The translations under genes and the position numbers were made by a program. The notes beneath the pieces were generated by a model that was not told the origin of the DNA, did not search any database, and saw only the letters and a list, made by a program, of their open reading frames with translations. Below are positions 3,023 through 36,270 of a DNA stretch of 64,000 bases, in pieces (positions within the stretch are counted from its first letter, which is position 1; every line of letters begins with the position of its first letter). This stretch comes from Squalus acanthias (taxonomy: Eukaryota): NCBI GenBank assembly GCA_030390025.1, contig CM059431.1, positions 124,002,001 through 124,066,000 on the forward strand. Reading direction: 5' to 3'.

Positions 3023-3970
3023 AGTGTGTAGATGAAGGTAGAGCAGTTGATGTCGTATACATGGATTTTAGTAAGGCGTTTGATAAGGTTCCCCATGGTC
3101 GGCTCATGAAGAAAGTAAGGAGTTGTGGGATAGAGGGAAATTTGGCCGATTGGATAAGTAACTGGATATCTCATAGAAGGCAGAGGGTGGTGATGGATGG
3201 TAAATTTTCGGACTGGAGACCAGTTACCAGCGGTGTGCCACAGGGGTCGGTGCTGGGTCCTCTGCTGTTTGTGATTTTTATCAATGACTTGGAGGAGGGG
3301 ACTGAAGGGTGGATCAGTAAATTTGCTGATGACACCAAGATTGGTGGAGTAGTGGATGAGGTGGAGGGCTGTTGTAGGCTGCAAAGAGACACTGATAGGA
3401 TGCAGAGCTGGGCCGAAAAATGGCAGATGGAATTTAACCCTGATAAGTGCAAGGTGATTCATTTTGGTAGGGCAAATTTGAATAAGGATTACAGGGTCAA
3501 CGGCAGGGTTCTGAGGAACATGGAGGAACAGAGGGATCTGGGGGTTCATATCCACAGATCTCTGAAGGTTGCCACTCAAGTGGATAGAGCAGTAAAGAAG
3601 GCCTATAGTGTGTTAGCGTTTATTCACAAGGGGTTTGAGTTTAAGAACCGTGAGGTAATGCTACAACTGTACAGGACCTTGGTGAGACCACATTTGGAAT
3701 ATTGTGTGCAGTTCTGGTCACCTCACTATAGGAAGGATGTGGAAGCATTGGAAAGAGTGCAAAGGAGATTTACCAGGATGCTGCCTGGTTTGGGGGGGAG
3801 GTCTTATGAGGAAAGATTGAGGGAGTTAGGGCTTTTCTCTTTAGAGCGGAGGAGGATGAGAGGCGACTTAATAGAGGTTTATAAGATGATGAGGGGGATA
3901 GATAGAGTGGATGTTCAGAGACTATTTCCTCGGGTGGAGGTAGCTGTTACAAGGGGGCATAACTATAAGG
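3023..3970 (+). mobile_element. CR1 LINE ORF2 (reverse transcriptase) fragment
   Basis: Motifs [38 protein letters not shown] and RRMRGDLIE. Confidence 0.92.
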
Positions 3971-4349
3971 TGGTGGGCAAAATGCTAGAGTCCATTATAA
4001 AAAATGTAATAGCAGAGCACTTGGAAAACAGTAACAGGATCGGACAAAGTCAACATGGATTTACAAAAGGGAAATCGTGCCATGACTAATCTACTGGAAT
4101 TTTTTGAGGATGTAACTGGTGGAATAGATAAGGGAGAACCAGTGGATGTGGTGTATTTGGACTTTCAGAAGGCTTTCGATACGGTCCCGCATAAGAGATT
4201 AGCGTGCAAAGTTAAAGCACATGGGATTGGGGGTAAGGTACTCTCTTGGATAGAGAACTGGTTGGCAGACAGGAAGCAAAGAGTTGGAATAAACGGGTCT
4301 TTTTCTGAGTGGCAGGCAGTGACAAGTGGGGTACCGCAGGGATCGGTGC
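3971..4349 (+). mobile_element. CR1 LINE fragment; 5' part of the copy split by the provirus
   Basis: Reads GKMLESII...SQHGF...DFQKAFD...SGVPQGSV, stops at the LTR and resumes at 16991 with LGPQLF. Confidence 0.92.
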
Positions 4350-4924
4350 TGTAGAATTCGCAATATATCGCGATTTTATTAATAAGGAGAAAACACAGAG
4401 TTTCGTTCAAACAGCTTTTATTTCAGCAGAATGCTGGCAGGTTTAAAGTGGACACAAGCAGCCTGTAAAATGGCCGCCGCACCTCGTGACAGAACATTCT
4501 AGACTTTTCAACAGGCAGACAAGATGGCGTTCCAGTAAACATTTGTGCAAGATCGATTAAGATTCAGCACAGTGAAGATAATACACGAGACATTATGGGT
4601 TTGCAGTATACACATAGATACTGAAATCGGTCTCCCAGGTACAAAGGAAAGCCATTGTACCGAGTAATCAAGGGCCCATCCAAAAGACATTAATATGTAA
4701 AATCCCAACGACTCTACGATGAGAGAGCCGTTAGCAGGTAGTTATACAGGACACTTGGAAGCCCCAAACCCCTCCAGGGAGAACACCGACCGATTTAACA
4801 ATGGGAGAAATATTAACAGGTACTCAGACATTTACGAGTAGCCCCGAAACCCATTAAGAACGGAGATCACCCATACAAGACATTTGGGCGCCAAACCCTA
4901 AACAAAAGAATGGACATTATAGTT

Positions 4925-4955
4925 GGGCGGGAAACGGAAGATTTTGCACTATAAT
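4925..4955 (+). promoter_or_regulatory. Candidate LTR promoter (GC box plus TATA-like box)
   Basis: GGGCGG at 4925 and TATAAT at 4950, followed about 25 nt later by a pyrimidine-rich initiator-like tract. Function is inferred. Confidence 0.45.
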
Positions 4956-5154
4956 TGCAGGCTCCAAACCGTCCATTCTCTCTCTTGCTCTTGCTGCTCT
5001 TATCATCGTGGCTGCTCCTGTGTACTCGTAGTTGGGCTTCTGCTTGCCTGTTGCCTCTTCTGAAAAGACTGTTGAACTTTCTGATCCGTTCGGATCTACC
5101 TCGTGTCGCGTAACGAAGACCTATGTTGGTAACTGGCAACGGAACCGAAGGCCC

Positions 5155-5183
5155 GAGATGAGATGAGATGAGATGAGATGAGA
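5155..5183 (+). repeat. (GAGAT)n microsatellite inside the LTR (second copy at 16170-16198)
   Basis: Five full GAGAT units plus GAGA in both LTRs. Confidence 0.9.
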
Positions 5184-5979
5184 AGAGAGGAAGACCATAT
5201 CCATCGCCACGGTCAGTAAATCCCGACCGCGCCTGTAGGTCGACTGTCCAAGTTTTCCTCGCCAGGAAGACTTCTTTGAACTTGCAAGGAAACATATCGT
5301 ATCGACGATATCGATAACTGTGCTCGAAGAGTACCTGTTAAACCAACCAACACAGGTCTTCATCACAGCAGACGGTCCAGCCTGCTAGCCGGAGCAGCAG
5401 AAGCAAGTAAACAAGTGGGACCAGGAGATCTCCTGACCGACACGTGGGTGCTGCGGTGAAAAACATCCGATCAGCTATTCGGAATTTCTCCGAGTTATCA
5501 CGAGTGGTGAGCATGAGTCTCGAAATCCTACGAATCTAGTTTAGGATAGATATTGATAGGGGAGGGTTTAAGGATTAAGGATATTTGTAATGTGTGCCCC
5601 TATTTACTTTGTGCCGTTCGTTCCTCGTTTCCCTAAGATCGACTATATAACTGTTTGTAAGATTGTACTGTCATTAATCTGTGCTTATGACATGTATTTC
5701 ATAATCTTAAGTATCATGCAATAAAGATTTTCCATTTCGTACCATTCAAACCGAGTCTACATGAGTTTCATCTCCATTACTGCTCTCGCATCTAAGTCCA
5801 GTGTCTAGAACCGTAAGGGAGAGTGATTCGAACCACTCACAGGTGTGTCTAGTGTTCCCAGACTGGCTGGAGACCAGAACAGGCAACAAGGCCTAGACCC
5901 GCACTGACATACAGGCTGCAGAGAGCCGCGTGAATCTCACAGGCTGCGAGACACGCAGGGTCAGAATCCCTTACAGAAA

Positions 5980-7792
5980 ATGGCGACCGCGGCAGGACAC
6001 TGGCAGCGAGAGGGTAGTGTGTTAGATTTTGGAATGACTGTACGAAATGTTATGCAGGAAAAGATAGCGGATTATGTGTTTGGAAAGGTTAATCTAACTA
6101 AGAAATGGATAAGTGAATTGTTAGCGGATAAGAGCCCACTAGAGGCAGCTGAAAGGTGGACAGATAGTAAAGAACATAAAAAGACACTTGAGAAAGCAGT
6201 CTGGCTTATGTGTTACAAAAGGCAGGTTCAGATTTCAAACCAGACCATTACAGCGCTAGTAGCTCGAATCAGTCATTTAGAGGGAGAAATGGAGGAGAAG
6301 GTTTCTGGAGGGGAGGTGCTCATTAAGAATTTAAATGAGTTACACCAAGAAAGCCAGGAAGTCTCCAGTCACCTTAAAACAAGGATAGATTATCTCGAGT
6401 GCCAGGTCACTGAGGCAAAATTGAATGAGAGCAGGTTAAAGGAAAGATGTAACCGCCAAGCTGCCCAGATAAGAACTCAAGAAGAGAGCTTGACGGGGGT
6501 TAGGGCGGCATATAAGTTGGCCCTTGAGGATAAGTTTCAGGGAGCCGATCATAGCGCCTGCCAAAGGGAGATAGAGCACCTCAAAAAGGCCGTGAACAAT
6601 GCGAACGGCATGGTGTGCCTTATCGATCCGTCGGCGCATCAGCCGCTAGTAAATGAGAGATTTAGAAAATCCCCACCAAATAAAGCAGAAGAAGTAGTAG
6701 CCACTGCGCCCTCCGCGCCACCCAGCTATTCAGAAACCTGGGTTAGGGGGGAAGCAATGGAAGAAACAAAAGAGCCCATTGAAAAAGAAGTAGGAAAGGG
6801 ATCGTTATATCCAGTAACGGGTATTAAAAGGGGCCCAAGCAGAAACGGTGGGGAAGAACCGGGGGATCTCCTCGGACAGCTGGTGTTGCCTCACAGTTCA
6901 CATCAGCTGAGAGCTATGATAAATCACGTACGGAAGCTGACCGAGGCAGACGACCCTTCCGTACATTTCAGAGAAGTTGAGCAAGCCGCAGCCATTAACG
7001 GCTGCGATGATGGGGAGACAGCAAAAATGCTGCTGTTCTCATTAGACAGCTCGGTCCTTCAGTGTCTCTCAGGCGAGAGCAAGAGGGGAACCAAGAGTTA
7101 TGAGGAATTAAAGAATGAGGTCCTGGAAGTGTTGGGGGGCGAACGATGAAGGTCCGTTTGCTAGAGTGGGACAGACAGTGCAGATGGAGGGAGAACCCCC
7201 GAAGGTTTTTGCCGACAGGCTGTGGCCAGTATATGAGCGCAGCTGCCTAGGTGCGCCCGAGCGCGAAGATGTGGAAGGTTTAGCTTTAACTCATTGGCTT
7301 AGGTGCATAATAGCCAACAGTTTACCAGCCGTCAGAGAGCAGGCAAAAGCATGGTTTGATCCCAATGACCCCAACATTACGGAAGAGTCGGTCTTGAATC
7401 GACTCACGTTAGGTTATCGCAATATAAGGGGTATGGCAACACGTCCCCTTAAGGGAAGAGTACATGAGGTACGACCCGCAGCCCCGTATCAAAGAGAGTG
7501 GCATCAGGAGGGTAATCGCGCCCCACAGGCAGGTAATGCTTGTTACGGGTGTGGGAAGACAGGGCACTGGCGCAAGCATTGCAGGAACCCTTGGAAGGAT
7601 TCCAAGGATAAAAATCCCGCGGTCCGAGCCCAGGCGCCTGTCCCGGCTAAGGAAGCCAAGGCACCCACCCCTCCCGACGACCTTGAAGCAGTGTTAGGAG
7701 CCATGCGCAAGCTGGTCTTGAATGCGCGTGGACAGGTGGCGGTCGCAACCGGCCCCGTAGGTGCCGCAGGACCATCTAATAGTACCCCATGA
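5980..7792 (+). CDS. gag: Gag polyprotein, split by a 1-nt frameshift in a G run near 7134-7139
   Basis: ORF 5980-7149 (coiled-coil-like region, PSAPPSY) plus ORF 7115-7792 (CCHC knuckle CYGCGKTGHWRKHC). Removing one G joins them as ...EVLGANDEGPF... Confidence 0.85.
5981..5998 (+). other. Primer-binding site, tRNA-Arg(TCG)
   Basis: TGGCGACCGCGGCAGGAC, 5 nt after the LTR, is complementary to the vertebrate tRNA-Arg(TCG) 3' end ...GTCCTGCCGCGGTCG-CCA (tRNA sequence recalled, not searched). Confidence 0.85.
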
Positions 7793-8266
7793 CTAGAACC
7801 GGCGCAGCCCGTCTACCTGTGTCCGCTTAACTATGATGCGTGGAGGCGACCTGTGGTGGAGATGGAGGTAGAGAAACAGAAGGGTAGTTATTTGTTGGAC
7901 ACGGGAGCTTCTTGCACCATAATCCATACAGATAACCCTTTTGACTCGCCGCTATCTACCAAGGTCCCATTCACGTTAGCAGGGTTCACAGGAAAAGAAC
8001 AGGCTGGCACGTTTTCCCTTCCGCTATCCATTCGTTTAGGAACACTTCGCCTTATTTGGAAGTGTATACTGATGGCATGGCAAAAGGGGGGTAGAAGAGG
8101 TATTCTCGGGTCCGATCTCCTAGCGGGACACGGGATCCTCGTGGACCTCAGAAATCACTGTCTCTGGGGGGCTAAAGGTGAAAAAGGCGAGGTAATAGTG
8201 ATTCCGGGGGAGGAAGAAACAGGGGTCCTGTGTACCAACGGACATGCAAACGTACGTGTCAGATAA
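7793..8266 (+). CDS. pro: Aspartyl protease, in frame with gag after the TGA
   Basis: LLDTGAS catalytic motif and GILGSDLL; the frame is open from the codon after the gag stop. Confidence 0.9.
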   Translation, partial: LEPAQPVYLCPLNYDAWRRPVVEMEVEKQKGSYLLDTGASCTIIHTDNPFDSPLSTKVPFTLAGFTGKEQAGTFSLPLSIRLGTLRLIWKCILMAWQKGGRRGILGSDLLAGHGILVDLRNHCLWGAKGEKGEVIVIPGEEETGVLCTNGHANVRVR

Positions 8267-11200
8267 TATGCACGCGTTTGCAACCCACAAGCACGATTGT
8301 GGGAGAGTGGTCGGGTTTGAGGTCAGCGTAGATGGGGACCCCATGACCCGACCCCAAAAGCAGTATAACTTCCCCAAAGAAGCAGAACCCGATATGGAGA
8401 CAGCAATGTCTTCCTTGGTGCAGCAGGGCGTGTTGAGGCCAATAGCCACACACGTGAACTCCCCATTATGGCCGGTTAGGAAGCCGGATAATTCGTGGAG
8501 GGCCACGGTGGACTACAGAGTCCTTAACAGTAACATTCCCGCCTGCGCGCCCACAGTAGCAGCAGTTGCTGACCTAATAGGGAGCATCCCAGCGTCCGCG
8601 ACCACGTTCACGGTGCTGGATATCTCGAACGGTTTTTGGTCCATCCCGCTGCGGCGAGAGGACCAGTACAAGTTTGCCTTTACTTTCAAAGGGCAACAGT
8701 ACACGTGGAACTGTCTGCCACAGGGTTTCCACAATAGCCCCAGTATTTTTCATCAGTGTATGGCAGGAAGTTTAAAGGAGTTTAGTCAGCCCAATCAGAT
8801 AGTACAGTATGTGGATGATTTGCTCCTATTTACGGACTCAAGGGAGGAGCACGGACCACTACTGGACGAGTTATTGGAGCTGTTAGCGAGAAAGGGTTTT
8901 AAAATAAACCCTAAGAAAGCACGTATCGGTCAGCGGGAAGTAAAATTCCTGGGACTGACCATACGCGCTGGGGAAAGAGCCATAGACAAAGCAAGGAGGG
9001 AGTCGGTGCAAGAATTACCGATTCCCAACAACGTAAGGGGTGTGAGGTCCTTCTTGGGACTGACCGGTTACTGCAGGGATTTTATCGAAGATTATGCGGC
9101 CACAGCAGCGCCGCTCCTCCGACTCCTCCATAAGGGGGTGGAGTGGCTTTGGGACGAGGGCTGCCAAGCAGCCTTCGAGAAGTTAAAAAGGGATCTGCAG
9201 ACCGCGCCAGCCTTAGGGGCCATAGATGGGGGGAAGGAGTTTTTCCTGGAGGTAGCTGCCAGCGGAGACAGCTTAAGCGCCGTACTGCTCCAAGAGCGTC
9301 ACGGCAAGCTGAGGCCGGTTGTCTATTCATCCAGGGTGTTAACGGATGTGGAGAGAAGTTTCTCCAATTGCGAAAGGCACCTTTTAGCCACGCATTGGGC
9401 TGTGAAAAGATCAGCGATCTTCACAGGGCTCTCTCCCATCACTCTCCTCACACATCACACACCAACTAAGATGCTTCTGGATGGGAGGATTAAAGACGGG
9501 ACCGTAAGCAGCGCACGCATTGCGCGTTGGACCCTTCTTCTCTCCCAGTTGGATCTTAGAGTAAAAGGTCTTTGCGAGCCAAGGCTTGCGGCCAATCTGG
9601 TATACCCCGGTACAGCCCACCGGTGTTCGGTGGAAGGGGTGTGGGACGTCAACATAGGTTTACGGGCCGGGATACATCCCACTGGGCGCGAGATTTATGT
9701 TGATGGGTCTAGCACAGTATCTGCTGGCGAACGACTCACAGGGTGTGGAGTTTATGACCCTGCGGCAGACCTTGCCCTGGCGATCAAGCTCCCTAGCACC
9801 ATGAGCGCGCAGCAGGCTGAGCTGTCTGCCGTGGTGTACGTTGTTACCCACCCAGACATTTTCCCAACCCCATACACGATTTGCTCGGACAGTATGTTCA
9901 CCTGCAATTCGTGTACGGAATACCTGGCCATTTGGTCCCGCCGCGGATACACCTCCGCGGACGGGCGACCTTTAACGGTGAAGCCCTTGCTGGAAAAGAT
10001 CTTAGCAGCAGCAGTAGGGGAGGAAGGAGAGATTTTCATCCATAAGGTGAAAGCTCACTCCTCCACAATGCCCCGTGGGGAGGGCAACCGGCAGGCGGAT
10101 GCGCTAGCCAGGGAGGGTGCCCGCGACGGCACTTTCTGGAACCCCTATAGGACCGGACCCATAGCAGCGGTCCGAGGCGGGGACGGGAATCCCGGGAACA
10201 CCAGGGTAGCATTGCCCCTAGACCTCAAGACCGTCCAAACCCAGGATCCCGCCCTAAAAGCAGTCCTAAAAACGATTGCTGAGGGGAGGCAGGTAGAAGG
10301 TCCGTACAGTACGGCAACCCTCTCAGTTAAGGAAGGCATGCTGTTCCGCGAGGAGCAGTGGGTTGTGCCGCAGCAGCACAGGAGGGAATTCCTCCAGTTG
10401 GCTCACGAGGGACCAGGGGCAGGGCACCCCGGGCCCGAGGTTACCTGGCAACGGGTAGAGCAAGCGGGATGGTGGCCAGGACTCAGGGAACAAGTCCGCG
10501 AGTTCTGCGCAAACTGTCTTGTGTGCGCTGCAAACAACCCAGACCCCCAGAAAAGGAAGGTGCCCATGGGACACGTAAGAAGGGTAGAGGGACCATGGCA
10601 GTCGATACAGATCGACTATATAGGACCCCTGCCCACCACCCAGGGAGGTTATAAGTACTGCCTCGTCCTGGTGGATGTGTTTTCCAAGTGGGTGGAAGCC
10701 TTCCCTTGTCGAACAGCTACGGCACTGGGTACAGCAAAAATCTTGGTCCGGGAAGTGTTCTCGCGGTGGGGACTCCCCCGTTTTGTGGAGTCAGACCAAG
10801 GGAGTCATTTCACCGGCCAGGTGATGCAGAACACCCTCATGCTTTTGGGCATTGAAGGGAAGTGGCACGTAGCACACAATCCCCAGTCATCCGGGATTGT
10901 TGAACGTATGAACCGGACCCTGAAGGAGAAATTGAGGAAAGAGACTAGGAACTCGCCCCAAAAATGGGCGGAAGTTCTGCCTTTAGTCCTCATGGGGGTC
11001 CGGGCCAGTCAGTCAAAAAGTACGGGGTACTCCCCGCACGAGGTAATGACCGGCAGGCTCATGCGAACCCCCACCCATGTGCTAGCGCCGGTGCTCACTG
11101 AGGGTCAGCTCCAGGAGATAAGCAGGGACAAGTTCGCCCAGACTCTCTTGGAGCGCCTGAAGCAAGTTTATGAGCAGGCGGCTGGGAACATGGGAAGGCA

Positions 11201-12278
11201 GCATCAGGGCAATCGCTTGTTGCTGGAACCCCGCAAAACGCGGGAGTGGGAAGTAGGAGACCAGGTCATGGTCAGAAACTACGCCAGAGTAGGGAGTCTG
11301 GAACCACTGTATATGGGACCCTACAACATTGTCGACAAGGCGAGTCCCATGGTTTACGCCGTAAAAGTACCACGGCGCACTAAGTGGTTCCACATAAACC
11401 AATGCAAACTGTACCAGCCAGGTGTGCAGGGGAAAACTACAGGGGTAAATCCCGCCAATGGGAAAGCACAGCCCCAGGTAGGACCACAAGGCACACAGGC
11501 AGGCATAGCAGCTTGCATCAGGGGAAGGGACATCCCGGACGATCATGCAGCGTTTTTCTGGAATTGGGGGTTAGATGAGGAAGAATTCAGGGTACCCGGG
11601 TCAGATGAGGATAGTGCAGATGAGGATAGTGATGACGACGGGTGGTTTCGGAGGAACGGTCCCTTTTACGATATGGAGGGGACGGGGGCTGCAGGTAGAG
11701 ATCCACACAGGGTGGACACACGAGCTGCAGGTCCCGAAGACAGGAGGGAGGAGCTAGAGGAGGCAGGGCCAGCCGCTATGGGAGCACAGAGAGTACCGGT
11801 GTGGCTCCCAGAGATGTGGCCGCCCGCTTTGAACGTCCAGTCCTCAGGGGAGGCAGAGATCACGAGTGAAGGGCCGCCTGCTGGGCCGAGCAGGGCGGAG
11901 CCACGAACTGCCAGCCCCGAGGTTAGGGAGGCGGAGTCAGCGGAGGCGGAGCCGGCGACTGTGATGGAACCCCAGGTCACCCCGATGGAAGTCTCGGAAC
12001 CCGGTCCGTCCGTCACGGAAACCCCGCCCATAGCAACTCCCCGTAGGTCAAGTAGAGAACCCCAGCCCAGGAGGATGTGGTCATGTCCCCAGACTGCCCC
12101 AAGGCGGAAATTTAAGGTTAAGATAACCCAGGTACAGACCGGCCACATCGCAGCAGTAACAGGCTGCGGCAGATCAGAGGGAAGGGTCAGCGCAGCAACA
12201 GGCTGCGGCAGATCAGAGGGAAGGGTCAGTGCCCTCCCACCGTCGGGAAGAGCTCGCAGCAGCCTTCTCAGAATTTAA
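8244..12278 (+). CDS. pol: Pol: reverse transcriptase, degenerate RNase H (tether), RNase H, integrase and an acidic/proline-rich tail
   Basis: RT motifs NSPLWPVRK, LDISNGFW, LPQGF, YVDD (8808-8819). First RNase H FFLEVAAS..LSAVLLQ; second RNase H YVDGS/SAQQAEL/SDS/HKVKAH/GNRQADALA. Integrase HHCC, IDYIGP, SDQG, GIVERMNRTLK, GPY. Out of frame with pro. Confidence 0.95.
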   Translation: MQTYVSDNMHAFATHKHDCGRVVGFEVSVDGDPMTRPQKQYNFPKEAEPDMETAMSSLVQQGVLRPIATHVNSPLWPVRKPDNSWRATVDYRVLNSNIPACAPTVAAVADLIGSIPASATTFTVLDISNGFWSIPLRREDQYKFAFTFKGQQYTWNCLPQGFHNSPSIFHQCMAGSLKEFSQPNQIVQYVDDLLLFTDSREEHGPLLDELLELLARKGFKINPKKARIGQREVKFLGLTIRAGERAIDKARRESVQELPIPNNVRGVRSFLGLTGYCRDFIEDYAATAAPLLRLLHKGVEWLWDEGCQAAFEKLKRDLQTAPALGAIDGGKEFFLEVAASGDSLSAVLLQERHGKLRPVVYSSRVLTDVERSFSNCERHLLATHWAVKRSAIFTGLSPITLLTHHTPTKMLLDGRIKDGTVSSARIARWTLLLSQLDLRVKGLCEPRLAANLVYPGTAHRCSVEGVWDVNIGLRAGIHPTGREIYVDGSSTVSAGERLTGCGVYDPAADLALAIKLPSTMSAQQAELSAVVYVVTHPDIFPTPYTICSDSMFTCNSCTEYLAIWSRRGYTSADGRPLTVKPLLEKILAAAVGEEGEIFIHKVKAHSSTMPRGEGNRQADALAREGARDGTFWNPYRTGPIAAVRGGDGNPGNTRVALPLDLKTVQTQDPALKAVLKTIAEGRQVEGPYSTATLSVKEGMLFREEQWVVPQQHRREFLQLAHEGPGAGHPGPEVTWQRVEQAGWWPGLREQVREFCANCLVCAANNPDPQKRKVPMGHVRRVEGPWQSIQIDYIGPLPTTQGGYKYCLVLVDVFSKWVEAFPCRTATALGTAKILVREVFSRWGLPRFVESDQGSHFTGQVMQNTLMLLGIEGKWHVAHNPQSSGIVERMNRTLKEKLRKETRNSPQKWAEVLPLVLMGVRASQSKSTGYSPHEVMTGRLMRTPTHVLAPVLTEGQLQEISRDKFAQTLLERLKQVYEQAAGNMGRQHQGNRLLLEPRKTREWEVGDQVMVRNYARVGSLEPLYMGPYNIVDKASPMVYAVKVPRRTKWFHINQCKLYQPGVQGKTTGVNPANGKAQPQVGPQGTQAGIAACIRGRDIPDDHAAFFWNWGLDEEEFRVPGSDEDSADEDSDDDGWFRRNGPFYDMEGTGAAGRDPHRVDTRAAGPEDRREELEEAGPAAMGAQRVPVWLPEMWPPALNVQSSGEAEITSEGPPAGPSRAEPRTASPEVREAESAEAEPATVMEPQVTPMEVSEPGPSVTETPPIATPRRSSREPQPRRMWSCPQTAPRRKFKVKITQVQTGHIAAVTGCGRSEGRVSAATGCGRSEGRVSALPPSGRARSSLLRI

Positions 12279-12564
12279 AGGGGCCGCCCTGAGAACGGGC
12301 GGCACTGTATAGTAAGTAGTAATAAGTTTTAAGTTTATAGTTCAAGGTTGAGTTTTATGTTTTATTAAGGTTAAGTTTATAGTGTTTTTAAAAGAAAACG
12401 ACAAAATGATGGGAGCTTTAAAGATAGGTTTAGTTGAAGTTTATTCAGCGAACGTTGAAGTTTACGTGAGGCGAGGTCAGGGGACCCGCTCACCCTTCAC
12501 AAAAGCCAGAGACTCTTGCGAGGCTGGCTACCTCATTCTATCTGATCACAGGAACCAAGGAAGG

Positions 12565-14916
12565 ATGGAACGAATTCTAGTATTGCTCGTGGCAATCGGA
12601 TGTGGATTGGCCTATCGAGGCCGCACCAAGGATGTCGTGGTGTTTGGATGTTCCGGGGACACGGCCCCCATCGCGGTGGATGGGACCGGAAGACGGGAGG
12701 CAGAGGAGACCAGCACCTATTTCCACAAGGGAAGGTGGCCAGGATGGCTGGGAACGAACTCAACGGAGTATTCCAGCACATCGGGGTTTGCCTACCAAGA
12801 GACTTCTTTACTGTGCCCCAAAGTAAGGATCATCGCACCCAGGATCAGCGTCACCGTCGGCAAACGGATTTGTTTGACTTGTAGTGGGAAGGTCCCATTG
12901 AGCCGATGGTGGTGGCTGCGAAAGCTGAGCAAAACTATGAGGAACTCTTCGGTCGAGTGGGAACGACTGGGTAATAATACCCATCGGACAATTACGGGGA
13001 CAGACGGACAAGTGAAAGTCTGGTGGGACAAATGGTGGGAACCGGATGAGGGAATTTATGTATGTATGTGGGGGTCAAAGTACGTTTGCCCCAAAGGCAT
13101 CTCCATATTTTTTATTAATCAATGGCAGGATAACGGTCAGGGGATGAGGTGGGATGCGAGCACCAGGGGGTGCGGAGCCCCATTCTCCCCGATCCCAGTA
13201 AATGCCACTGAGCTCATTACGCGCCCACGCAAAGCCCCGCCCACGATTCCGGTGGTTCTAGCTGAGGAAGAAGGGTGCCCTAAAACTAGTAAGGGACCCG
13301 GGAATGGTTTGGTACTGGTCCCCACAGACCAGATACTATTTCAAGGGGTACATTACGCGGTGGCCTCGGTGATTTTAAATCTTACTGAGGTGCGGTTACC
13401 AGAGTGGTGCCCCAAAAAGACGGAACAGTTGTACCAGGTCCTGTTGACCAAGATGTTCAGACAATTTTACGAATTCGATTTCGCGGAAATTGATAAAACA
13501 AGTTTGTACACCGCACCACAGGAAGTTTTGGATCAAGTAGGGAGGCAAAGAAGGGGTTTGGTGAACGATGCGTTCACTGCTTTTAACACAGGTACATCTG
13601 TGGTCAACGCTCTAGACAGTGTGGAGCTGCAGACCCAGATTAATGGTTTAAAGACACAATTAAAGGACATTCTAACAGATGAGAATAAAGTGGTAGGGTC
13701 GGGTTTACACGAGGACCAAGCCATGACCCTCCATTTAAAGGAAATTATAGCAGAGTTGGAGAAACATGCAAAGACGGTAAATGCCCTGATTAGGGAAGAT
13801 CGGAATGCATCCGATCAGGCTGCGCAGAACGAGGTGTGCGTGCTTTACGGGGCGTGGTTACTGGGCGAGGGCCGCAGTAATTTGGAGGATTTAAAACAAG
13901 GTTTGGTCCCGTCCTGGATAAGTAACAAACACCTGCAGGCGCTCCACCCTTTTCAGAACACATTAAACCCGTGCCAGCTCAGGCTAGCTTCAGAAGCTTA
14001 CCCAGTCCCCGTGGACTGTGGACGATCAAACCATACCATCATGGGTATAGTTTTACGTATGCCGGTTTTGGGCGACACAGCAAAGCCCGCCCCGGTGTAT
14101 CGGGTAGAGAACATTGGTGTCATTCAGGGGGGAGCCCACATTCGCTATGCAGCGGTTCCACCTTACGTCATCCGCTGGGAGCAAACGATGACAGGTACAG
14201 ATCTCTCTGGTTGTCGTGGCAGGGGAGCACACATAATACTGTGTCCCCAGCACTTGAATGCCTTTTTAACACCACAGTGCGGGTTCAGAACGACTGGCGC
14301 CAAGTCCATGAATTGCACCATGGAGGCAATGGCACAAGATCATGTGCCTCCGCAGGTAGCATACATCGGGGGTGGAACATATTGTGTTACCACTGCAGCG
14401 CAACACTACCAGCATGGAAACCGTAGCCGGTGTCCGGTGAGTGACAGCAGTTTCTGTTTTAAACCCAGGGCGGAAGTTCAAGTTGCACAACAGCGAATTA
14501 TCCCAATCCCTGAACCATCCACTGTTCATCTCACAGTAAAAGAGAATTTCACCGACTTGCAGCGATTCGTCGCGCATTTTGGATACACCATTCCCCCTCT
14601 CCCTGAACACCTCACCAAGCTTTTGAAAGCCGTCGCGGTGTCACAGAAACATTTTTATACATTAGAGCAGAAAACTGTCGAAATAGGAACAGACATTCTG
14701 GATATAGTAGTTCCACCGTGGTGGAATCTGTTCACAAATATTGAAGTGCCTTCATGGATTAGAATAGCCTCCCACATTTTAGTCGTATGCCAAGTGTTTA
14801 TCGTAGTGTACCTATTGGTCGTACATTGTAAAAGAGGCAAACGCCTCACCAAGCATGAAAACACGGGAGAGTGGCGAGAACGTTACGTGCGCGTGCACGA
14901 TGAGAGCACCGTGTAA
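12565..14916 (+). CDS. env: Envelope glycoprotein: signal peptide, Ig-like domain, class I fusion (F-like) module and transmembrane anchor
   Basis: Signal-like MERILVLLVAIGCGLA; LTC..W..DEGIYVC; furin site RQRR (13543-13554) followed by a heptad repeat; Cys-rich region; hydrophobic anchor IASHILVVCQVFIVVYLLVV; several N-X-S/T sequons. The ORF is open from 12382. Confidence 0.88.
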   Translation: MERILVLLVAIGCGLAYRGRTKDVVVFGCSGDTAPIAVDGTGRREAEETSTYFHKGRWPGWLGTNSTEYSSTSGFAYQETSLLCPKVRIIAPRISVTVGKRICLTCSGKVPLSRWWWLRKLSKTMRNSSVEWERLGNNTHRTITGTDGQVKVWWDKWWEPDEGIYVCMWGSKYVCPKGISIFFINQWQDNGQGMRWDASTRGCGAPFSPIPVNATELITRPRKAPPTIPVVLAEEEGCPKTSKGPGNGLVLVPTDQILFQGVHYAVASVILNLTEVRLPEWCPKKTEQLYQVLLTKMFRQFYEFDFAEIDKTSLYTAPQEVLDQVGRQRRGLVNDAFTAFNTGTSVVNALDSVELQTQINGLKTQLKDILTDENKVVGSGLHEDQAMTLHLKEIIAELEKHAKTVNALIREDRNASDQAAQNEVCVLYGAWLLGEGRSNLEDLKQGLVPSWISNKHLQALHPFQNTLNPCQLRLASEAYPVPVDCGRSNHTIMGIVLRMPVLGDTAKPAPVYRVENIGVIQGGAHIRYAAVPPYVIRWEQTMTGTDLSGCRGRGAHIILCPQHLNAFLTPQCGFRTTGAKSMNCTMEAMAQDHVPPQVAYIGGGTYCVTTAAQHYQHGNRSRCPVSDSSFCFKPRAEVQVAQQRIIPIPEPSTVHLTVKENFTDLQRFVAHFGYTIPPLPEHLTKLLKAVAVSQKHFYTLEQKTVEIGTDILDIVVPPWWNLFTNIEVPSWIRIASHILVVCQVFIVVYLLVVHCKRGKRLTKHENTGEWRERYVRVHDESTV

Positions 14917-15352
14917 TCGGAAAATGGCGTCACTCCCGCTCGCCACGTGCGCCGCGGAAGCCTGTACTCATATAAGATTTTCAGAGATTGTAAATACGTT
15001 GGAAACTCGACATGTTAAGAGTTGGTGTTGATTATTTTGGTGATGGTGTTACAGTTAAAAATGATTGTTTGGTTTTGGGTTTTGTTTTTCCTTACCCTGA
15101 ATAAAAGATGAATATACAGGTGATACGAGAGGCATCGGCCTGGTTACGCCGGGAAGGAAAACAAGTGGTGTAAGTTTAAGGGCAAATAATGCCTACGGTG
15201 ATATAAAATGTAATTTTCTTGGGAAATGAGGACGACACAGAGACCCTAGCTAAGTTAAAATTATGGGATTAATTTACTGGATTCGGAGAGAAATCGAGAT
15301 AATATTGCTCACCACTATGATTTTTGATACGATAAGCGGAGTTATTCGCATC

Positions 15353-15364
15353 AACAGGAGGGAC
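15353..15364 (+). other. Polypurine tract
   Basis: AACAGGAGGGAC lies immediately before the 3' LTR; short and imperfect. Confidence 0.6.
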
Positions 15365-16990
15365 TGTAGAATTCGCAATATATCGCGATTTTATTAATAA
15401 GGAGAAAACACAGAGTTTCGTTCAAACAGCTTTTATTTCAGCAGAATGCTGGCAGGTTTAAAGTGGACACAAGCAGCCTGTAAAATGGCCGCCGCACCTC
15501 GTGACAGAACATTCTAGACTTTTCAACAGGCAGACAAGATGGCGTTCCAGTAAACATTTGTGCAAGATCGATTAAGATTCAGCACAGTGAAGATAATACA
15601 CGAGACATTATGGGTTTGCAGTATACACATAGATACTGAAATCGGTCTCCCAGGTACAAAGGAAAGCCATTGTACCGAGTAATCAAGGGCCCATCCAAAA
15701 GACATTAATATGTAAAATCCCAACGACTCTACGATGAGAGAGCCGTTAGCAGGTAGTTATACAGGACACTTGGAAGCCCCAAACCCCTCCAGGGAGAACA
15801 CCGACCGATTTAACAATGGGAGAAATATTAACAGGTACTCAGACATTTACGAGTAGCCCCGAAACCCATTAAGAACGGAGATCACCCATACAAGACATTT
15901 GGGCGCCAAACCCTAAACAAAAGAATGGACATTATAGTTGGGCGGGAAACGGAAGATTTTGCACTATAATTGCAGGCTCCAAACCGTCCATTCTCTCTCT
16001 TGCTCTTGCTGCTCTTATCATCGTGGCTGCTCCTGTGTACTCGTAGTTGGGCTTCTGCTTGCCTGTTGCCTCTTCTGAAAAGACTGTTGAACTTTCTGAT
16101 CCGTTCGGATCTACCTCGTGTCGCGTAACGAAGACCTATGTTGGTAACTGGCAACGGAACCGAAGGCCCGAGATGAGATGAGATGAGATGAGATGAGAAG
16201 AGAGGAAGACCATATCCATCGCCACGGTCAGTAAATCCCGACCGCGCCTGTAGGTCGACTGTCCAAGTTTTCCTCGCCAGGAAGACTTCTTTGAACTTGC
16301 AAGGAAACATATCGTATCGACGATATCGATAACTGTGCTCGAAGAGTACCTGTTAAACCAACCAACACAGGTCTTCATCACAGCAGACGGTCCAGCCTGC
16401 TAGCCGGAGCAGCAGAAGCAAGTAAACAAGTGGGACCAGGAGATCTCCTGACCGACACGTGGGTGCTGCGGTGAAAAACATCCGATCAGCTATTCGGAAT
16501 TTCTCCGAGTTATCACGAGTGGTGAGCATGAGTCTCGAAATCCTACGAATCTAGTTTAGGATAGATATTGATAGGGGAGGGTTTAAGGATTAAGGATATT
16601 TGTAATGTGTGCCCCTATTTACTTTGTGCCGTTCGTTCCTCGTTTCCCTAAGATCGACTATATAACTGTTTGTAAGATTGTACTGTCATTAATCTGTGCT
16701 TATGACATGTATTTCATAATCTTAAGTATCATGCAATAAAGATTTTCCATTTCGTACCATTCAAACCGAGTCTACATGAGTTTCATCTCCATTACTGCTC
16801 TCGCATCTAAGTCCAGTGTCTAGAACCGTAAGGGAGAGTGATTCGAACCACTCACAGGTGTGTCTAGTGTTCCCAGACTGGCTGGAGACCAGAACAGGCA
16901 ACAAGGCCTAGACCCGCACTGACATACAGGCTGCACAGAGCCGCGTGAATCTCACAGGCTGCGAGACACGCAGGGTCAGAATCCCTTACA
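15365..16990 (+). repeat. 3' LTR (1,626 bp)
   Basis: Direct repeat of 4350-5975 at offset 11015; I noticed one mismatch (G5921 versus C16936). Confidence 0.97.
16735..16740 (+). terminator. Candidate polyadenylation signal in the LTR (also 5720-5725)
   Basis: AATAAA 250 nt from the LTR end. Confidence 0.55.
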
Positions 16991-17917
16991 GTGCTAGGAC
17001 CCCAGCTATTCACAATATATATTAATGATCTAGACGAGGGAACTAGATGTAATATCTCTAACTTTGCAGACGACACAAAGCTGGGTGGGCGTGTGTGCTG
17101 TGAGGAGGATGCAGAGAAACTCCAGTATGATTTGGACAGGTTGGGTGATTGGGCAGATGCATGGCAGATGCAGTATAATGTGGATAAATGCGAGGTTATC
17201 CACTTTGGTGGCAAAAACAGGACGACAGGTTATTATCTGAACGGCAATAGATTGGGAAAAGGGGAAGTGCAACGAGATCTGGGAGTCCTTGTGCAACAGT
17301 CGCTGAAGGTAAGCATGCAGGTGCAGCAGGTGGTTAAGAAGGCAAATGGTATGTTGGCCTTCATAGCGAGAGGATTCGCGTACAGGAGCAAGTATGTCTT
17401 GCTGCAGTTATACAAGGCCTTGGTGAGACCACACCTTGAGTATTGTGTGCAGGTTTGCTCGCCTTATCTGAGGAAGGATGTTCTTGCCATGGAGGGAGTG
17501 CAGCGAAGATTTACCAGACTGATACCAGGGGTGGCAGGAATGAAGTATGAAGAGAGATTGGGTCGATAGGCTTATATTCGCTAGAGTTTAGAAGAATGAG
17601 AGGGGATCTCATTGAAACTTATAAAATTCTAACAGGACTAGACAGACTAGATGCAGGAAGGATGTTCCCGATGGTGGGGGAGTCCAGAACCAGAGGTCAC
17701 AGTCTAAGGATAAGGGGTAAGCCATTTAGGACTGAGATGAGGAGGAATTTCTTCACCCAGAGAGTGGTGAACCTGTGGAATTCTCTACCACAGAAGGCAG
17801 TTGAGGCCAATTCATTAAATATATTCAAGAAGGAGATCAGCCATGATCTCATTAAATGGCGGAGCAGGCTCGAGGGGCCGAATGGCCTACTCCTGCTCCT
17901 ATCTTCTATGCTTCTAT
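16991..17917 (+). mobile_element. CR1 LINE; 3' part of the copy split by the provirus
   Basis: LGPQLFTIYIND, FADDTK, RPHLEYC, RGDLIETYK and a CR1 3' UTR; highly similar to the copy at 56581-58302. Confidence 0.92.
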
Positions 17918-21240: not shown

Positions 21241-23353
21241 GCAATTATGGCAAGTGGAAGTGGAGGAAGAGGAAGAGAGGCTACAACGTAGGCAGCCCCT
21301 TTCAGCCCGGGCCCTTTGTGATCAGATTATTCATGAGCGATACCAGTAACCTCAACCACACCTCCCCATTCACCAACAGCTCCACACTCTTTACCTTTCC
21401 TCTACCACTGACCATCACATTTTCCTCTTTCTGACAACACACAAATAAAAAGCAGAAAATGTCAATTAATTTCCAATTTTATAAATTCACTCATTAAATA
21501 AAGCATACAAAATTAACTAATCACCCTGTGCATTCCCTTAGTGCCTGTCTTCCTTGTGTCTTTGTCAATCCTAGTGCTCCTACGAGATGTTTCCCCAGTG
21601 GTGGAAGGCTGCTGACCTTCAATTGAGAAGACTGCAGATCGCCTATAAGAATGAACTCGAACAGCACTGGGCCTGGAGCACCCGGCTTCCGACTGCACTA
21701 TCTCAGCCTGAGCTGCAGCAGTCTGGGCTGGCTGGCTGACAGACAACAGCAAGGGCACTGGCCGAGTGGCAGGGGTAGGAGCAGGAATGCTGTCATCCTG
21801 AGAGAGGACAGCATGTTTGTATTCCATGGAGCCACTGCCACTTTCCTGGGGCAGCGTCTCAGCAATCCTGCTGATCTGTTGGAGAACTGATTGGAGAACT
21901 GCTGTGATGCCCTGGAAGCCCCTTTGAAGAGTGATATTTAGAGCCACAATAGCAACTTGCAAGGTAGCAGTCTGAGCTTTCAATGCAGCACTCAGATCTT
22001 CGATGGAAGTTGTTTGTGCTGCAATGGAAGCTGTGACATTGGCCATCAGGTGGTGCATCAGGTGTGCTGATGGAGGTGACCACCTGTTCCATGTTGGAAA
22101 GGATGGGCTCCAAGGTCTGTACAAATCCCTTTGCCAAGTTGGAGCTGGACACCTCCATGCTTTTGGACATTGTGCGTAGCTTTTTGGCAGGCAGTTCAGT
22201 TCACCACAGCTACCTGGACTACACTTCCTCCCACCCCGCCTCCTGTAAGGACTCTATTCCATTCTCCCAGTTTCTCCGTCTCCGCCGCATCTGCTCTGAT
22301 GATGCCACCTTCCATACCAGTGCTTCCGACATGTCTTCCTTTTTCCTCAACCGAGGATTCCCCTCTACCGTGGTCGACACGGCCCTCGACCGTGTCCGTT
22401 CTATCTCCCGCACATCTGCCCTCACCCCTGCCCCTCCCTCCCGGAACCACGATAGGGTTCCCCTTGTCCTCACCTTTCACCCCACCAGCCTCCACATTCA
22501 ACGGATCATCCTCCGCCATTTCCGCCACCTCCAGCGTGATCCCACCACCAAACACATCTTCCCCTCACCTCCCCTTTCAGCATTCCGCAGGGACCGCTCC
22601 CTCCGCGACACCCTAGTCCACTCCTCTACCACCCCCAGCACCCCTTCCCCTTCGCCCGGCACCTTCCCGTGCACGCGCAGGAGATGCAACACATGCCCTT
22701 ATACCTCCCCTCTTCCCACTGTCCAGGGCCCCAAACACCCCTTCCAGGTGAAACAGCGATTTACTTGTACTTCCTGCAATTTAGTATACTGTATTCGCTG
22801 CTCACGATGTGGACTCCTCTACATTGGGGAGACCAAACGCAGATTGGGTGACCGCTTTGCGGAACACCTCCGTTCAGTCCGTAAGGGGGACCCCGAGCTC
22901 CCGGTGGCCTGTCACTTTAATTCACCGCTTCACTCCCACTCTGACCTCACCGTCCTCGGCCTATTACACTGTTCCACGGAAGCTCAGCGTAAGCTCGAGG
23001 AACAGCACCTCATCTTTCGTTTAGGCACGCTACAGCCCTCTGGACTCAATATCGAGTTCAACAATTTTAGATCATAACCTCAGCTCCAATCACATTTATA
23101 TTTTATTTTATCCACCCTTTTATTTGTCCCCCCCACCTTTTTTTTCCTCCTAGAAGCTGGCAGCTGTCCTTCATTCTGCCAGTGGATTTCACACTTCATT
23201 CAGCCTTAATCTGTCACATTAACACCACCTCTAGCCTTGCATATCTCTTAATGTCTCTTAATGTCTCTTCATCTCCTCCTTTGTTCCTTTATCCCCTCCC
23301 CCTTTTCCCAGCTTTACCCTGGCCTTAAATCTATTTGATTTCCAGCTCTTCCC

Positions 23354-23390
23354 AGTTCTGATGAAAGGTCATCGACCTGAAACGTCAACT
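23354..23390 (+). ncRNA. Minimal type I hammerhead ribozyme
   Basis: AGTT-CTGATGA-A-AGGTC-ATC-GACCT-GAAAC-GTC-AACT: catalytic core boxes, stem II hairpin and stem I pairing AGTT/AACT. Confidence 0.85.
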
Positions 23391-35230: not shown

Positions 35231-36270
35231 CTACTCTGGTGGTGCTCCAAGGCCTGGTGGCATTGGCTGGGTCCTGAGGATTGCCAGGTTATGAAGAATG
35301 CAGCACACAACTATGAAGAGGGAGACTCGCTCAGGCGAGTACTGCAGGACTCCTCCTGAGTGGTCCAGACAGCGGAACCGTTGCTTGAGCACGCTGATCG
35401 TCTGCTCAATGATGTTCCTGGTGGCGAGATGGCTCTCGTTGTACCGCAGCTCAGCAGGGGTGTTGGGTTTATGGAGCGGTGTCATCAGCCAGGTGCACGG
35501 TGAGAACCCTTGTCCCCGAGGAGCCAACCACTTGGCTGATGCGGTGCCTGGAAAAGTTCTGGCACACCAGCCTGGCGCAGGATGAAAGCATCGTGGCTGC
35601 TGCCAGGATAGCGGGCATTGACAGCGAGTATCAGCTGTCTGTGGTCACAGACCAACTGGACGTTTAAGGAGTGGAACCCCTTGCGGTTTTGGAAAACCTC
35701 TGCATTCTCATGCGGTGCCCGCAATGTCACATGCGTGCAGTCAATGGCGCCCTGCACCATGGGGAAGCCCGCTATCCTTGCAAAGCCCAATGCGTGTTCA
35801 TGCTGTTTGGCCCGGGTCATCGGGAAAGCGATGTACTGGCGTCTCCTTTTATAGAGGGCATTTGTGACCTGACGGATACAGCAATGGACCGCGAACTGGG
35901 AGATATTGGCAATGTCCCCAGTGGCTGCTTGAAAGGAGCCGGTGGCATAAAAATTCAGAGCCACTGTAACCTTCACTGCCACCGACAGAGACGTCGTGGT
36001 CCTCAGTTGAGGCGGCAGATTTGGCTGCAGCAGGTGGCAGAGCTCAGTGACCACCTCCTTGCTGAAGCGCAGCCTGCGCAAACACTACTCCTCAGACAAA
36101 TTAATGTAGGAGAATTGTTCCCGGAATACCGTGGGAGGATAAGGTCTCCTGTGCAGAGGCGTGTTGGCCCTCCTCCGTCTGGCCACTGATTGCCACTCTC
36201 TCTCTGCGTCTCTGTTGCCTCCAATTCTGCAGGTGCAGGACGACGCCCAGAATCAGTGCAGCCCCCATAG
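35231..36270 (-). pseudogene. Harbinger DDE transposase, frameshifted
   Basis: GAIDCTH, NRKGFHSLNVQLVCD, PGSSHDAFIL, LLGDKG, RNIIEQTISVLKQRFRCL. Confidence 0.92.

Follow-up and report, generated by a model that had tools for sequence, protein, structure and literature searches.

An abundant endogenous retrovirus of Squalus acanthias with a canonical reverse transcriptase, probably allied to SnRV and the foamy viruses rather than to lokiretroviruses

A 64,000-nucleotide stretch of Squalus acanthias DNA (assembly GCA_030390025.1, contig CM059431.1, positions 124,002,001 to 124,066,000; hereafter the window) contains at its positions 4350-16990 a provirus with the plan long terminal repeat (LTR), primer-binding site (PBS), gag, pro, pol, env, polypurine tract (PPT) and LTR, bordered by a short target duplication. 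The element is probably a recent integration of a very abundant elasmobranch endogenous retrovirus (ERV) that belongs to the canonical Retroviridae, in a group here called clade A that lies beside snakehead retrovirus (SnRV) and the foamy viruses, rather than a lokiretrovirus. A first-pass annotation had read it as a near-intact provirus of the lokiretrovirus lineage or of a related one. Much of what was described then is present: the complete LTR-gag-pro-pol-env-LTR structure, visible in the LTR pair, a GTGC duplication, the PBS, the PPT and Pfam domains; a reverse transcriptase (RT) with a YVDD motif; and two RNase H domains, one a dead tether and the other with D501, E540, D563 and D633 intact. 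The assignment to the lokiretroviruses fails, because the RT lies in the canonical retroviral clade and a topology test rejects the union of clade A with the lokiretroviruses.

Phylogenetic position of the polymerase

An RT tree of 52 rows by 261 columns was computed with a careful search. Canonical retroviruses, the window element included, formed a clade of 37 rows (support 100/98) with two lokiretrovirus rows as its sister, outside it, and the 13 Ty3/Gypsy rows that served as outgroup split off at 100/99. The defining trait of lokiretroviruses (Wang and Han 2020; proposed name Lokiorterviridae) is an RT whose branch lies outside that of every other retrovirus (PMC7947760); the window RT lies across this deepest retroviral split from theirs. 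It was joined with protein P0004 (100/100), and both fell in clade A (95/86) together with the unnamed protein P0005, three frog proteins, one Xenopus protein and three Latimeria proteins. In approximately unbiased (AU) tests, joining clade A to the lokiretroviruses was rejected (p-AU 0.0019, lnL lower by 29.1); joining it to the foamy viruses (p-AU 0.285, lnL lower by 2.1) or to SnRV (p-AU 0.378, lnL lower by 1.8) was not. As the RT is not lokiretroviral, no extension of the lokiretrovirus host range to a shark or ray follows, and a false lead to a lokiretrovirus in cartilaginous fish is removed. A supplementary table of PMC7947760 lists six chondrichthyan genomes screened for lokiretroviruses, none of them positive. 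This fits the present result, because two of the screened species carry the Env family described below. Among the papers listed by literature searches on lokiretroviruses, with and without shark terms, none reports a chondrichthyan lokiretrovirus.

The window RT domain is 44% identical to that of SnRV. A by-eye count over the core motif LDISNGFWSI...QYVDDLLL in the available portion of a published alignment gave 37 of 47 positions shared with the SnRV row versus 24 of 47 with the foamy rows, and when the accessible text of the PMC7947760 supplement was searched for the window motif, the SnRV row was the sole match.

The SnRV reference in the trees is viral locus L001, which has the length (10,688 nt) and the gag stop (TAGGGC) given in the portions of PMC12193657 and PMC13517186 that were available. 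Protein P0155 carries the exact SnRV RT text of the PMC7947760 supplement alignment, as far as that was accessible, and is 99.4% identical to L001 Pol; word-index protein searches returned neither SnRV nor foamy proteins by name, and SnRV Pol only as this unnamed protein. Lokiretroviruses were represented by the eel Pol proteins P0013 and P0014, whose RT, RNase H and integrase peptides can be read in the published consensus Pol of Loki-Aro; some of them recur in 14-15 other lokiretrovirus consensus Pols in the part of the PMC7947760 supplement at hand. A scan of viral contigs yielded 37 retroviral loci, of which 14 were used in trees, and Pfam was run on 30 of their open reading frames (ORFs). 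Foamy viruses were labelled by spumavirus Gag domains and Foamy_virus_ENV, gammaretroviruses by Gag_p30 and TLV_coat, and deltaretroviruses by Gag_p19. Walleye dermal sarcoma virus (WDSV) as well as Moloney murine leukaemia virus (MoMLV) were labelled by length and stop context, and two further genomes (L026, foamy; L037, delta) by genome layout and 100% grouping with Pfam-labelled genomes. Another 37 database rows were picked as group representatives, 24 vertebrate and 13 Gypsy, from two sets of 85 and 94 database matches. With the lokiretrovirus, foamy-like ERV and SnRV sequences printed in the PMC7947760 supplement, comparison was by eye only.

Trees were also computed for other parts of Pol. 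A quick tree of the RT-to-integrase region (33 rows by 869 columns) also left the lokiretroviruses outside the canonical clade (SH-aLRT 98) and separated six Gypsy rows (SH-aLRT 100); within the canonical clade it contained a trichotomy of foamy viruses, clade A (94) and a side holding SnRV with the epsilon- and gammaretroviruses (96). The integrase behaved differently from the RT. In a careful integrase tree of 42 rows by 238 columns, from which six short-integrase and four long-branch rows had been dropped, the lokiretrovirus rows were nested in clade A (95/93 for a 7-row set, 93/92 for a 12-row set), and nine Gypsy rows were separated at 98/95. A quick RNase H tree placed clade A, SnRV, lokiretroviruses and foamy viruses in one group (SH-aLRT 85). 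Clade A relatives carry the NCBI name 'NYNRIN-like', and we take NYNRIN to be the same gene as CGIN1, which itself was outside the sampling of the integrase tree. The RNase H and integrase groupings agree with PMC7947760, where lokiretrovirus RNase H is placed with foamy viruses and the integrase with CGIN1. The RT and integrase phylogeny that the first-pass annotation had proposed as a check thus gave a divided answer: the RT is canonical, an outcome close in spirit to one it had named as counting against the lokiretrovirus assignment, and the integrase goes with that of the lokiretroviruses. As the lokiretrovirus integrase lies inside clade A but the lokiretrovirus RT outside the canonical clade, the two trees are in conflict. 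This conflict points to module exchange between lokiretroviruses and canonical retroviruses, for which it would be direct evidence.

Envelope protein, rival assignments and known relatives

Counted from the signal-peptide Met, Env is 783 aa long, with ten sequons for N-glycosylation and a single membrane anchor close to its C-terminus. It had no match in a Pfam scan of five proviral pieces. Moreover, even with the threshold set at E≤1, Pfam assigned none of 22 proteins of the Env family to a retroviral Env family, in keeping with the earlier description of an env unlike standard surface/transmembrane (SU/TM) proteins; at the same threshold 0 of 22, the window's included, matched PF00523, and one member had a weak Baculo_F match (E 0.0011) that lay below the cutoff. 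An AlphaFold (AF2) model of Env had a mean predicted local distance difference test score (pLDDT) of 59.6, with values of 70-93 over residues 240-310 and 400-650 and low confidence in an extra N-terminal domain of about 225-240 residues. Foldseek placed human parainfluenza virus 3 F on top (E 3e-11, probability 1.0), and in VIA the model aligned with paramyxovirus/pneumovirus F at Z 12.7 (332 of 418 residues, model range 245-651). The likeness to Mononegavirales fusion proteins that the earlier assignment implied is supported by the model: residues 245-655 share the fold of F, which takes in heptad-repeat helices, beta-rich domains and, ahead of the furin site, a strand region resembling F2. 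The differences are a sequence identity of 8-15% with no sequence-level match, the additional N-terminal domain (about 225 residues) and occurrence in a reverse-transcribing virus. An ESM Atlas search was uninformative, as the best cluster (score 0.84) held unnamed chordate proteins.

Single-sequence phmmer searches of the Protein Data Bank (PDB) with Env alone and with SnRV Env returned nothing significant. A profile of 26 Env-family members, in contrast, retrieved foamy virus Env as its best PDB match in hmmsearch (E 8.8e-5). By hhalign the Env-family profile aligned with 12 foamy Envs over 153 columns in the foamy TM region (probability 92.6%, E 4.5e-7) and with SnRV Env over 352 columns (probability 91.8%, E 7.5e-7), the latter alignment covering the cleavage site and the strands before it, the helices and the domains rich in cysteine. 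From the model and the profiles we conclude that the Env body has a paramyxovirus/pneumovirus F-like fold and is homologous to SnRV Env and foamy Env at the profile level. Foamy virus Env shares the F-like fold according to the available part of PMC11468914. The portion of the SnRV literature covered contains no statement that SnRV-type Env is F-like, which is not a claim that this is unpublished. An F-like Env is present in a canonical lineage outside the foamy viruses, and this bears on whether retroviral Env was gained once or several times (scenarios in PMC9040795).

An exhaustive HMMER search recovered 51 relatives of Env. Those with species names came from one skate (Rhinoraja longicauda), six sharks (Pristiophorus japonicus, Scyliorhinus torazame, Mustelus asterias, Chiloscyllium punctatum, Heterodontus francisci and Heptranchias perlo) and three frogs (Pelodytes ibericus, Mantella aurantiaca and Xenopus tropicalis). 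Every named relative above 60% identity is a shark or skate protein, which indirectly supports the chondrichthyan host that had been surmised from the letters of the window. For frogs, the C-terminal tail of Pol P0006 was compared with Env P0103 and had no similarity to it (E 0.68), so that this comparison gave no sign that clade A Pol and the Env family are linked there. A second, related Env family is also present in the host genome in many copies on many contigs (at least 104 matches among 12,734 first-look candidates); its open frames are mostly 789 aa long, and it is 77-79% identical to a Rhinoraja longicauda protein. Stretches 31-66% identical to the window Env lie in four gene models of Pristiophorus japonicus and Heterodontus francisci (P0002, P0003, P0095 and P0123), which bear the names Niban 1-like, ZFP2-like, cadherin-related 5-like and fbxo15 isoform X3. 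The models are probably annotation chimeras with ERV insertions, the alternative being exaptation.

The window element has several features in common with lokiretroviruses: the integrase type that nests with theirs in clade A, an RNase H in the same quick-tree group, the NYNRIN-like names of its relatives beside a lokiretrovirus integrase that adjoins CGIN1 (PMC7947760), an Env of the F-like class, for which PMC7947760 reports likeness at the sequence level, and the habit of young multi-copy ERVs of aquatic vertebrates. A lokiretroviral identity, whether within the known lineage or as a new offshoot of it in cartilaginous fish, is nonetheless very improbable. The defining marker is the RT, and both its position inside the canonical retroviruses and the AU test speak against this assignment, so that a relation to the lokiretroviruses holds for the integrase module only. 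Lokiretrovirus Env matches PF00523 at 2.2e-7 (PMC7947760), whereas the present Env family falls short of such a match. Where lokiretrovirus consensus sequences have been published for the same species, the relatives differ from them by eye: Xenopus Env P0152 from the Loki-Xtr Env consensus and Latimeria Pol P0009 from the Loki-Lch Pol consensus. Furthermore, Chiloscyllium punctatum and Scyliorhinus torazame, the two screened species with this Env family, were scored lokiretrovirus-negative in the table cited above. Loki-like features are not exclusive, because a dual RNase H is common to all retroviruses and an F-like Env occurs also in foamy viruses (PMC11468914, available part) and SnRV; a dual RNase H, an F-like Env and a CGIN1-type integrase are consequently not diagnostic of lokiretroviruses without an RT tree. 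An env-carrying Ty3/Gypsy retrotransposon of the errantivirus kind with an F-type Env was also considered. F-type Env is common in env-carrying invertebrate Gypsy elements (bioRxiv 10.1101/2023.10.26.564294, accessible text), Pfam assigns Gypsy-type RT_RNaseH_2, Integrase_H2C2 and Tf2 SH3 domains to the window Pol, Ty3 ranks first in the PDB by summed score, and one Env-family member has the subthreshold Baculo_F match. A Gypsy identity is refuted by the RT, integrase and Pol trees, which separate the element from 13, 9 and 6 Gypsy rows; its RNase H of the Gypsy type is without catalytic activity, an additional RNase H is present, and a chromodomain is absent. The accessible text of the same preprint also reports no vertebrate ERV homologous to invertebrate elements. 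The chance that the element is of this kind is negligible.

A foamy-like ERV, of the 'ERV-Spuma' or FLERV type of cartilaginous fish and sister to Spumaretrovirinae rather than to SnRV, is a more serious competitor but still an unlikely one. Clade A together with the foamy viruses is not rejected by the AU test, the prototype foamy virus (PFV) integrase is the best integrase match among solved structures (E 5e-34), the RNase H and integrase belong to the same broad groups, and the window element shares with foamy viruses a deep position among retroviruses and an F-like Env fusion core with conserved cysteines, the Env profile matching the TM region. Foamy-like ERVs of such fish are already published: 'ERV-Spuma' elements of the catshark (PMC10699275) and, reportedly, endogenous foamy viruses of cartilaginous fish (Wang, Chen and Cui 2023, J Virol). 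Against this assignment, the window Gag has a CCHC knuckle, and pro follows in frame after the gag stop, with readthrough predicted; in foamy viruses, Cys-His boxes are missing and Pol has an mRNA to itself. The element has no Pfam match to spumavirus Gag, protease A9 or Foamy_virus_ENV, whereas true foamy genomes score 1498-1688 bits for Env. Its PBS fits tRNA-Arg, and foamy genome L018 has a different TGG-initiated 18-mer; there are no ORFs past env and no tas/bet region. The RT active-site context is also unlike that of foamy viruses, the core motif being nearer to the SnRV row in the published alignment as far as accessible (by-eye count above), and the Env alignment extends over more than twice as many columns with SnRV as with the foamy viruses.

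We therefore prefer an assignment beside SnRV. The label 'SnRV-like' rests on Env homology, which extends at the profile level across the whole F-like body, on a gag stop that in SnRV is read through into an in-frame pro-pol and in the window element is predicted to be, and on the RT core motif. The hosts of the ERV relatives (cartilaginous fish, frogs and coelacanth) are a further point in common. The two differ in the length of Env (1134 aa in SnRV, 783 aa here), in the gag stop (UAG-GGC versus UGA-CUAG) and in the integrase, which in SnRV is long-branched and far from the window integrase. Several points weigh against this assignment. The RT tree holds a polytomy of SnRV, the foamy viruses (100/100), clade A and an epsilon/gamma/delta group (96/98), so that there is no resolved sister relation to SnRV, and the quick Pol tree puts SnRV with the epsilon/gamma side and not with clade A. 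The group joined in the AU test with the lokiretroviruses was set by the earlier hypothesis, yet the test was run after the tree had been seen. The trees hold no ERV-L, lenti-, alpha- or betaretroviruses, fish or shark foamy-like ERVs or published shark ERVs, and their two lokiretrovirus rows come from one eel species. A pairwise BLASTP comparison of Env with SnRV Env was insignificant (E 0.56), the relationship being visible to the family profile only. The gag region has no family-level match and is labelled by its position, the CCHC knuckle and slight similarities. Finally, SnRV has accessory ORFs (ORF1-3 and 3'ORF; PMC12193657, part available) and the window element has none.

Elements of these kinds are known from several vertebrates. 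In the parts of the following reports that were available, SnRV-related ERVs with env occur in the elephant shark (CmiERV lineage I; Han 2015, PMC4422223), the SnRV-related clade 'Huo' of Xu et al. (2018) spans all vertebrate classes (PMC6001957), and Xenopus carries SnRV-like elements (Grau et al. 2014, PMC4131045); the likeness of these shark and frog elements to the present one is by description and not by sequence. Because SnRV-like and foamy-like ERVs of cartilaginous fishes have already been published, the window family joins known kinds, with chimeric features. A bolder interpretation, which we hold only tentatively and regard as the less likely one, is that clade A is a deep canonical lineage not yet recognised, combining a canonical RT, an integrase of the lokiretrovirus/NYNRIN type and the F-like kind of Env that SnRV and foamy viruses also have. 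If this held, the F-like Env would not be a private capture by lokiretroviruses from negative-strand RNA viruses but either ancestral or widely exchanged in a basal grade of lokiretroviruses, foamy viruses and SnRV-like elements, and integrase modules would have been swapped between lokiretroviruses and clade A. The family might then still infect or circulate among elasmobranchs, of which the thousands of copies, the open envs and the near-identity across five labelled organisms (see below) would be signs.

Structure, frame breaks and proposed replication

The features of the provirus and of the interrupted element at its insertion site are collected in Table 1.

Table 1. Coordinates of annotated features, numbered from the first base of the window
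Feature	Position	Strand	Remarks
LINE reverse-transcriptase ORF, left half	3025..4349	+	Pfam RVT_1 on 3025-4086, E 4e-27
5' target-site duplication GTGC	4346..4349	+	read from the sequence; same 4 bases after 3' LTR
5' LTR	4350..5975	+	1626 bp, TG...CA
PBS	5981..5998	+	18 nt, complement of the CCA-bearing 3' end of host tRNA-Arg(TCG)
gag part 1, coiled-coil-rich N-terminal region	6031..7149	+	ORF open from 5908; 6031 is the first Met past the PBS
gag part 2, other frame	7112..7789	+	a single zinc knuckle (CCHC) at about 7538-7579
gag stop TGA followed by CTAG, pro in frame	7790..7796	+	predicted readthrough site
Protease	7793..8266	+	Pfam RVP, E 3e-5; DTG at 7898-7906
pol ORF	8202..12278	+	frame differs from pro
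RT	about 8349-9131	+	Pfam RVT_1, E 4e-36; YVDD at 8808-8819
Tether (first RNase H-like domain)	about 9150-9548	+	Pfam RT_RNaseH_2/RT_RNaseH
RNase H (second)	about 9690-10121	+	Pfam RNase_H, E 2e-19
Integrase zinc domain	about 10365-10541	+	Pfam Integrase_H2C2
Integrase core	about 10593-10883	+	Pfam rve
SH3	about 11286-11414	+	Pfam SH3 (Tf2)
env ORF, open	12352..14916	+	
env signal-peptide Met	12565	+	
env F-like body	about 13297-14529	+	
env furin-type RQRR	13543-13554	+	residues 327-330
env membrane anchor	about 14758-14835	+	
PPT AACAGGAGGGA	15353..15363	+	single C at 15364 separates the tract from the 3' LTR
3' LTR	15365..16990	+	1626 bp, TG...CA
3' target-site duplication GTGC	16991..16994	+	
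LINE reverse-transcriptase ORF, right half	16991-17566	+	Pfam RVT_1 on 16949-17566, E 7e-6

The two LTRs differ at a single one of 1626 bases (5921 versus 16936; Kimura two-parameter distance 0.0006); the 5' copy contains a TATA-like TATATA at 5644 and an AATAAA at 5720. When the complement of the PBS was extended into the T-arm, the resulting 22-mer had exact matches in tandem tRNA arrays of the host, and ARAGORN called tRNA-Arg(tcg) at all three of the scanned loci holding this 22-mer. About 450 bp separate the env stop (14916) from the 3' LTR (15365), with no ORF of 100 aa or more between them. The SnRV PBS-like 18-mer was also searched for in the host genome: its complement occurs 108 times, with a tRNA at none of three sampled loci. 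On one host contig (C26; loci L069-L073), tRNA-Arg(TCG) stands beside tRNA-Ser(GCT) in long tandem arrays whose repeat unit measures about 1.6 kb, and a 22-mer from the 3' part of tRNA-Arg has 589 host matches at two mismatches or fewer.

Neither gag piece had a match in the Pfam scan of the five proviral pieces, and phmmer found no significant PDB match to part 1. Part 1 has a weak BLASTP match to SnRV Gag (E 0.021). Residues 132-162 of part 2 have weak matches to retroviral nucleocapsids (NC), the best being human immunodeficiency virus 1 NC at E 0.028, and cellular CCHC proteins rank first; against the NC regions of Gag proteins, part 2 gave BLASTP E values of 5e-4 (viral locus L013) and 1e-3 (WDSV). 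The sequence UGA CUA is a type II readthrough motif, and gag-stop readthrough is also found in SnRV, WDSV and MoMLV, according to the accessible text of PMC13517186.

Two frame breaks interrupt this coding region. The gag frame switches inside the overlap 7112-7149, and the pro/pol frame switches inside 8202-8266, where the product is about 15 residues short of its 88%-identical relative P0004, which runs from protease through integrase in a single frame. As both gag and the pro/pol junction switch frame, the window copy cannot make Gag-Pro-Pol as it stands. 'Near-intact' thus describes the LTRs, the open env and the domains correctly but not gag or the pro/pol junction. Contigs of the provirus family assembled from public sequencing runs have a length inside the gag overlap unlike that of the window copy, and 35 of 40 scored Pro-Pol matches in the host genome are stop-free and in one frame. 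On these grounds both breaks look private to the window copy, or like assembly errors.

PDB matches of pol included the Ty3, MLV and foamy virus RT-RNase H structures and the PFV integrase. In the first RNase H-like domain, A, H and H replace the D, E and D carried by 13 of 13 Gypsy rows; because these three catalytic residues are lost, it is a tether. A degenerate tether followed by an active RNase H is the retroviral arrangement. Past the SH3 domain, 11415-12278 encodes a low-complexity, G+C-rich tail of about 290 residues with a direct 15-aa duplication near its end and no family match.

A replication cycle may be proposed from these features. Transcription would start in the 1.6-kb LTR, and reverse transcription would be primed by host tRNA-Arg(TCG) at the PBS. 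Gag would consist of a coiled-coil N-terminus and one CCHC nucleocapsid knuckle, with Gag-Pro-Pol made by readthrough of the UGA-CUAG stop, as in SnRV and the gamma- and epsilonretroviruses. Pol would supply RT, an inactive tether derived from an RNase H, a second RNase H that is active, and an integrase of the H2C2/DDE type making 4-bp duplications. Env would be a furin-cleaved class I fusion protein whose body has homologues in SnRV Env and in the TM portion of foamy Env, and its extra N-terminal domain probably binds a receptor. Amplification may have proceeded by reinfection.

Abundance, age and insertion site

Further copies, which the first-pass annotation had suggested looking for, proved very numerous in the host assembly (3.71 Gb, 3,882 contigs). 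The 15-mer complementary to the PBS occurs 3,425 times, compared with 0 for a reversed control. None of 30 sampled sites of this 15-mer lies in a tRNA; 25 of the 30 match the LTR/gag junction of the window, 22 of them at 85-99% over 1 kb and three at about 73-74%. For the LTR, 40 of 3,383 first-look candidates were scored, and of 43 listed matches at 84-100% identity, 41 were at 95-100%. All of the 57 scored env matches were full length, 99% identical and stop-free; these were the best-scoring of 12,929 candidates, so that the sample is biased towards good copies. With the two neutral rates quoted in the available part of Han 2015 (PMC4422223), the LTR divergence corresponds to about 0.14-1.4 million years. 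The family size and the uniformly open env make this host suited to the study of ongoing germline invasion in an early-branching vertebrate.

The provirus is also represented in public sequence data. Twenty public runs from eight studies, labelled with five coded organisms, hold 53-76% of its sampled 31-mers, and contigs from four such runs span the whole provirus at 95-99+% identity. These values indicate near-identical copies in several labelled taxa, whose relatedness is hidden by the coding. No RNA run is on record among the public runs holding provirus words; expression itself was not assessed. Contigs that join both flanks without the provirus do so at varying positions. They come from many paralogues of the long interspersed nuclear element (LINE) at the insertion site and are therefore uninformative on insertion polymorphism.

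The insertion splits the reverse-transcriptase ORF of this LINE (Table 1). Elsewhere the 64-kb window is rich in repeats, at least seven further ORFs match RVT_1, and no host gene was recognised among the window ORFs in the Pfam scan. Harbinger-type DDE_Tnp_4 transposase fragments and a Myb/SANT-like ORF lie at 35488-36084, 62076-62540 and 41461-41922, all on the minus strand. A 1004-aa open frame at 23262-26273 on the plus strand has a weak RVT_1 match (E 2.6e-5) and may represent another type of retroelement; the 22-26 kb stretch of the window has strongly negative GC and AT skew.

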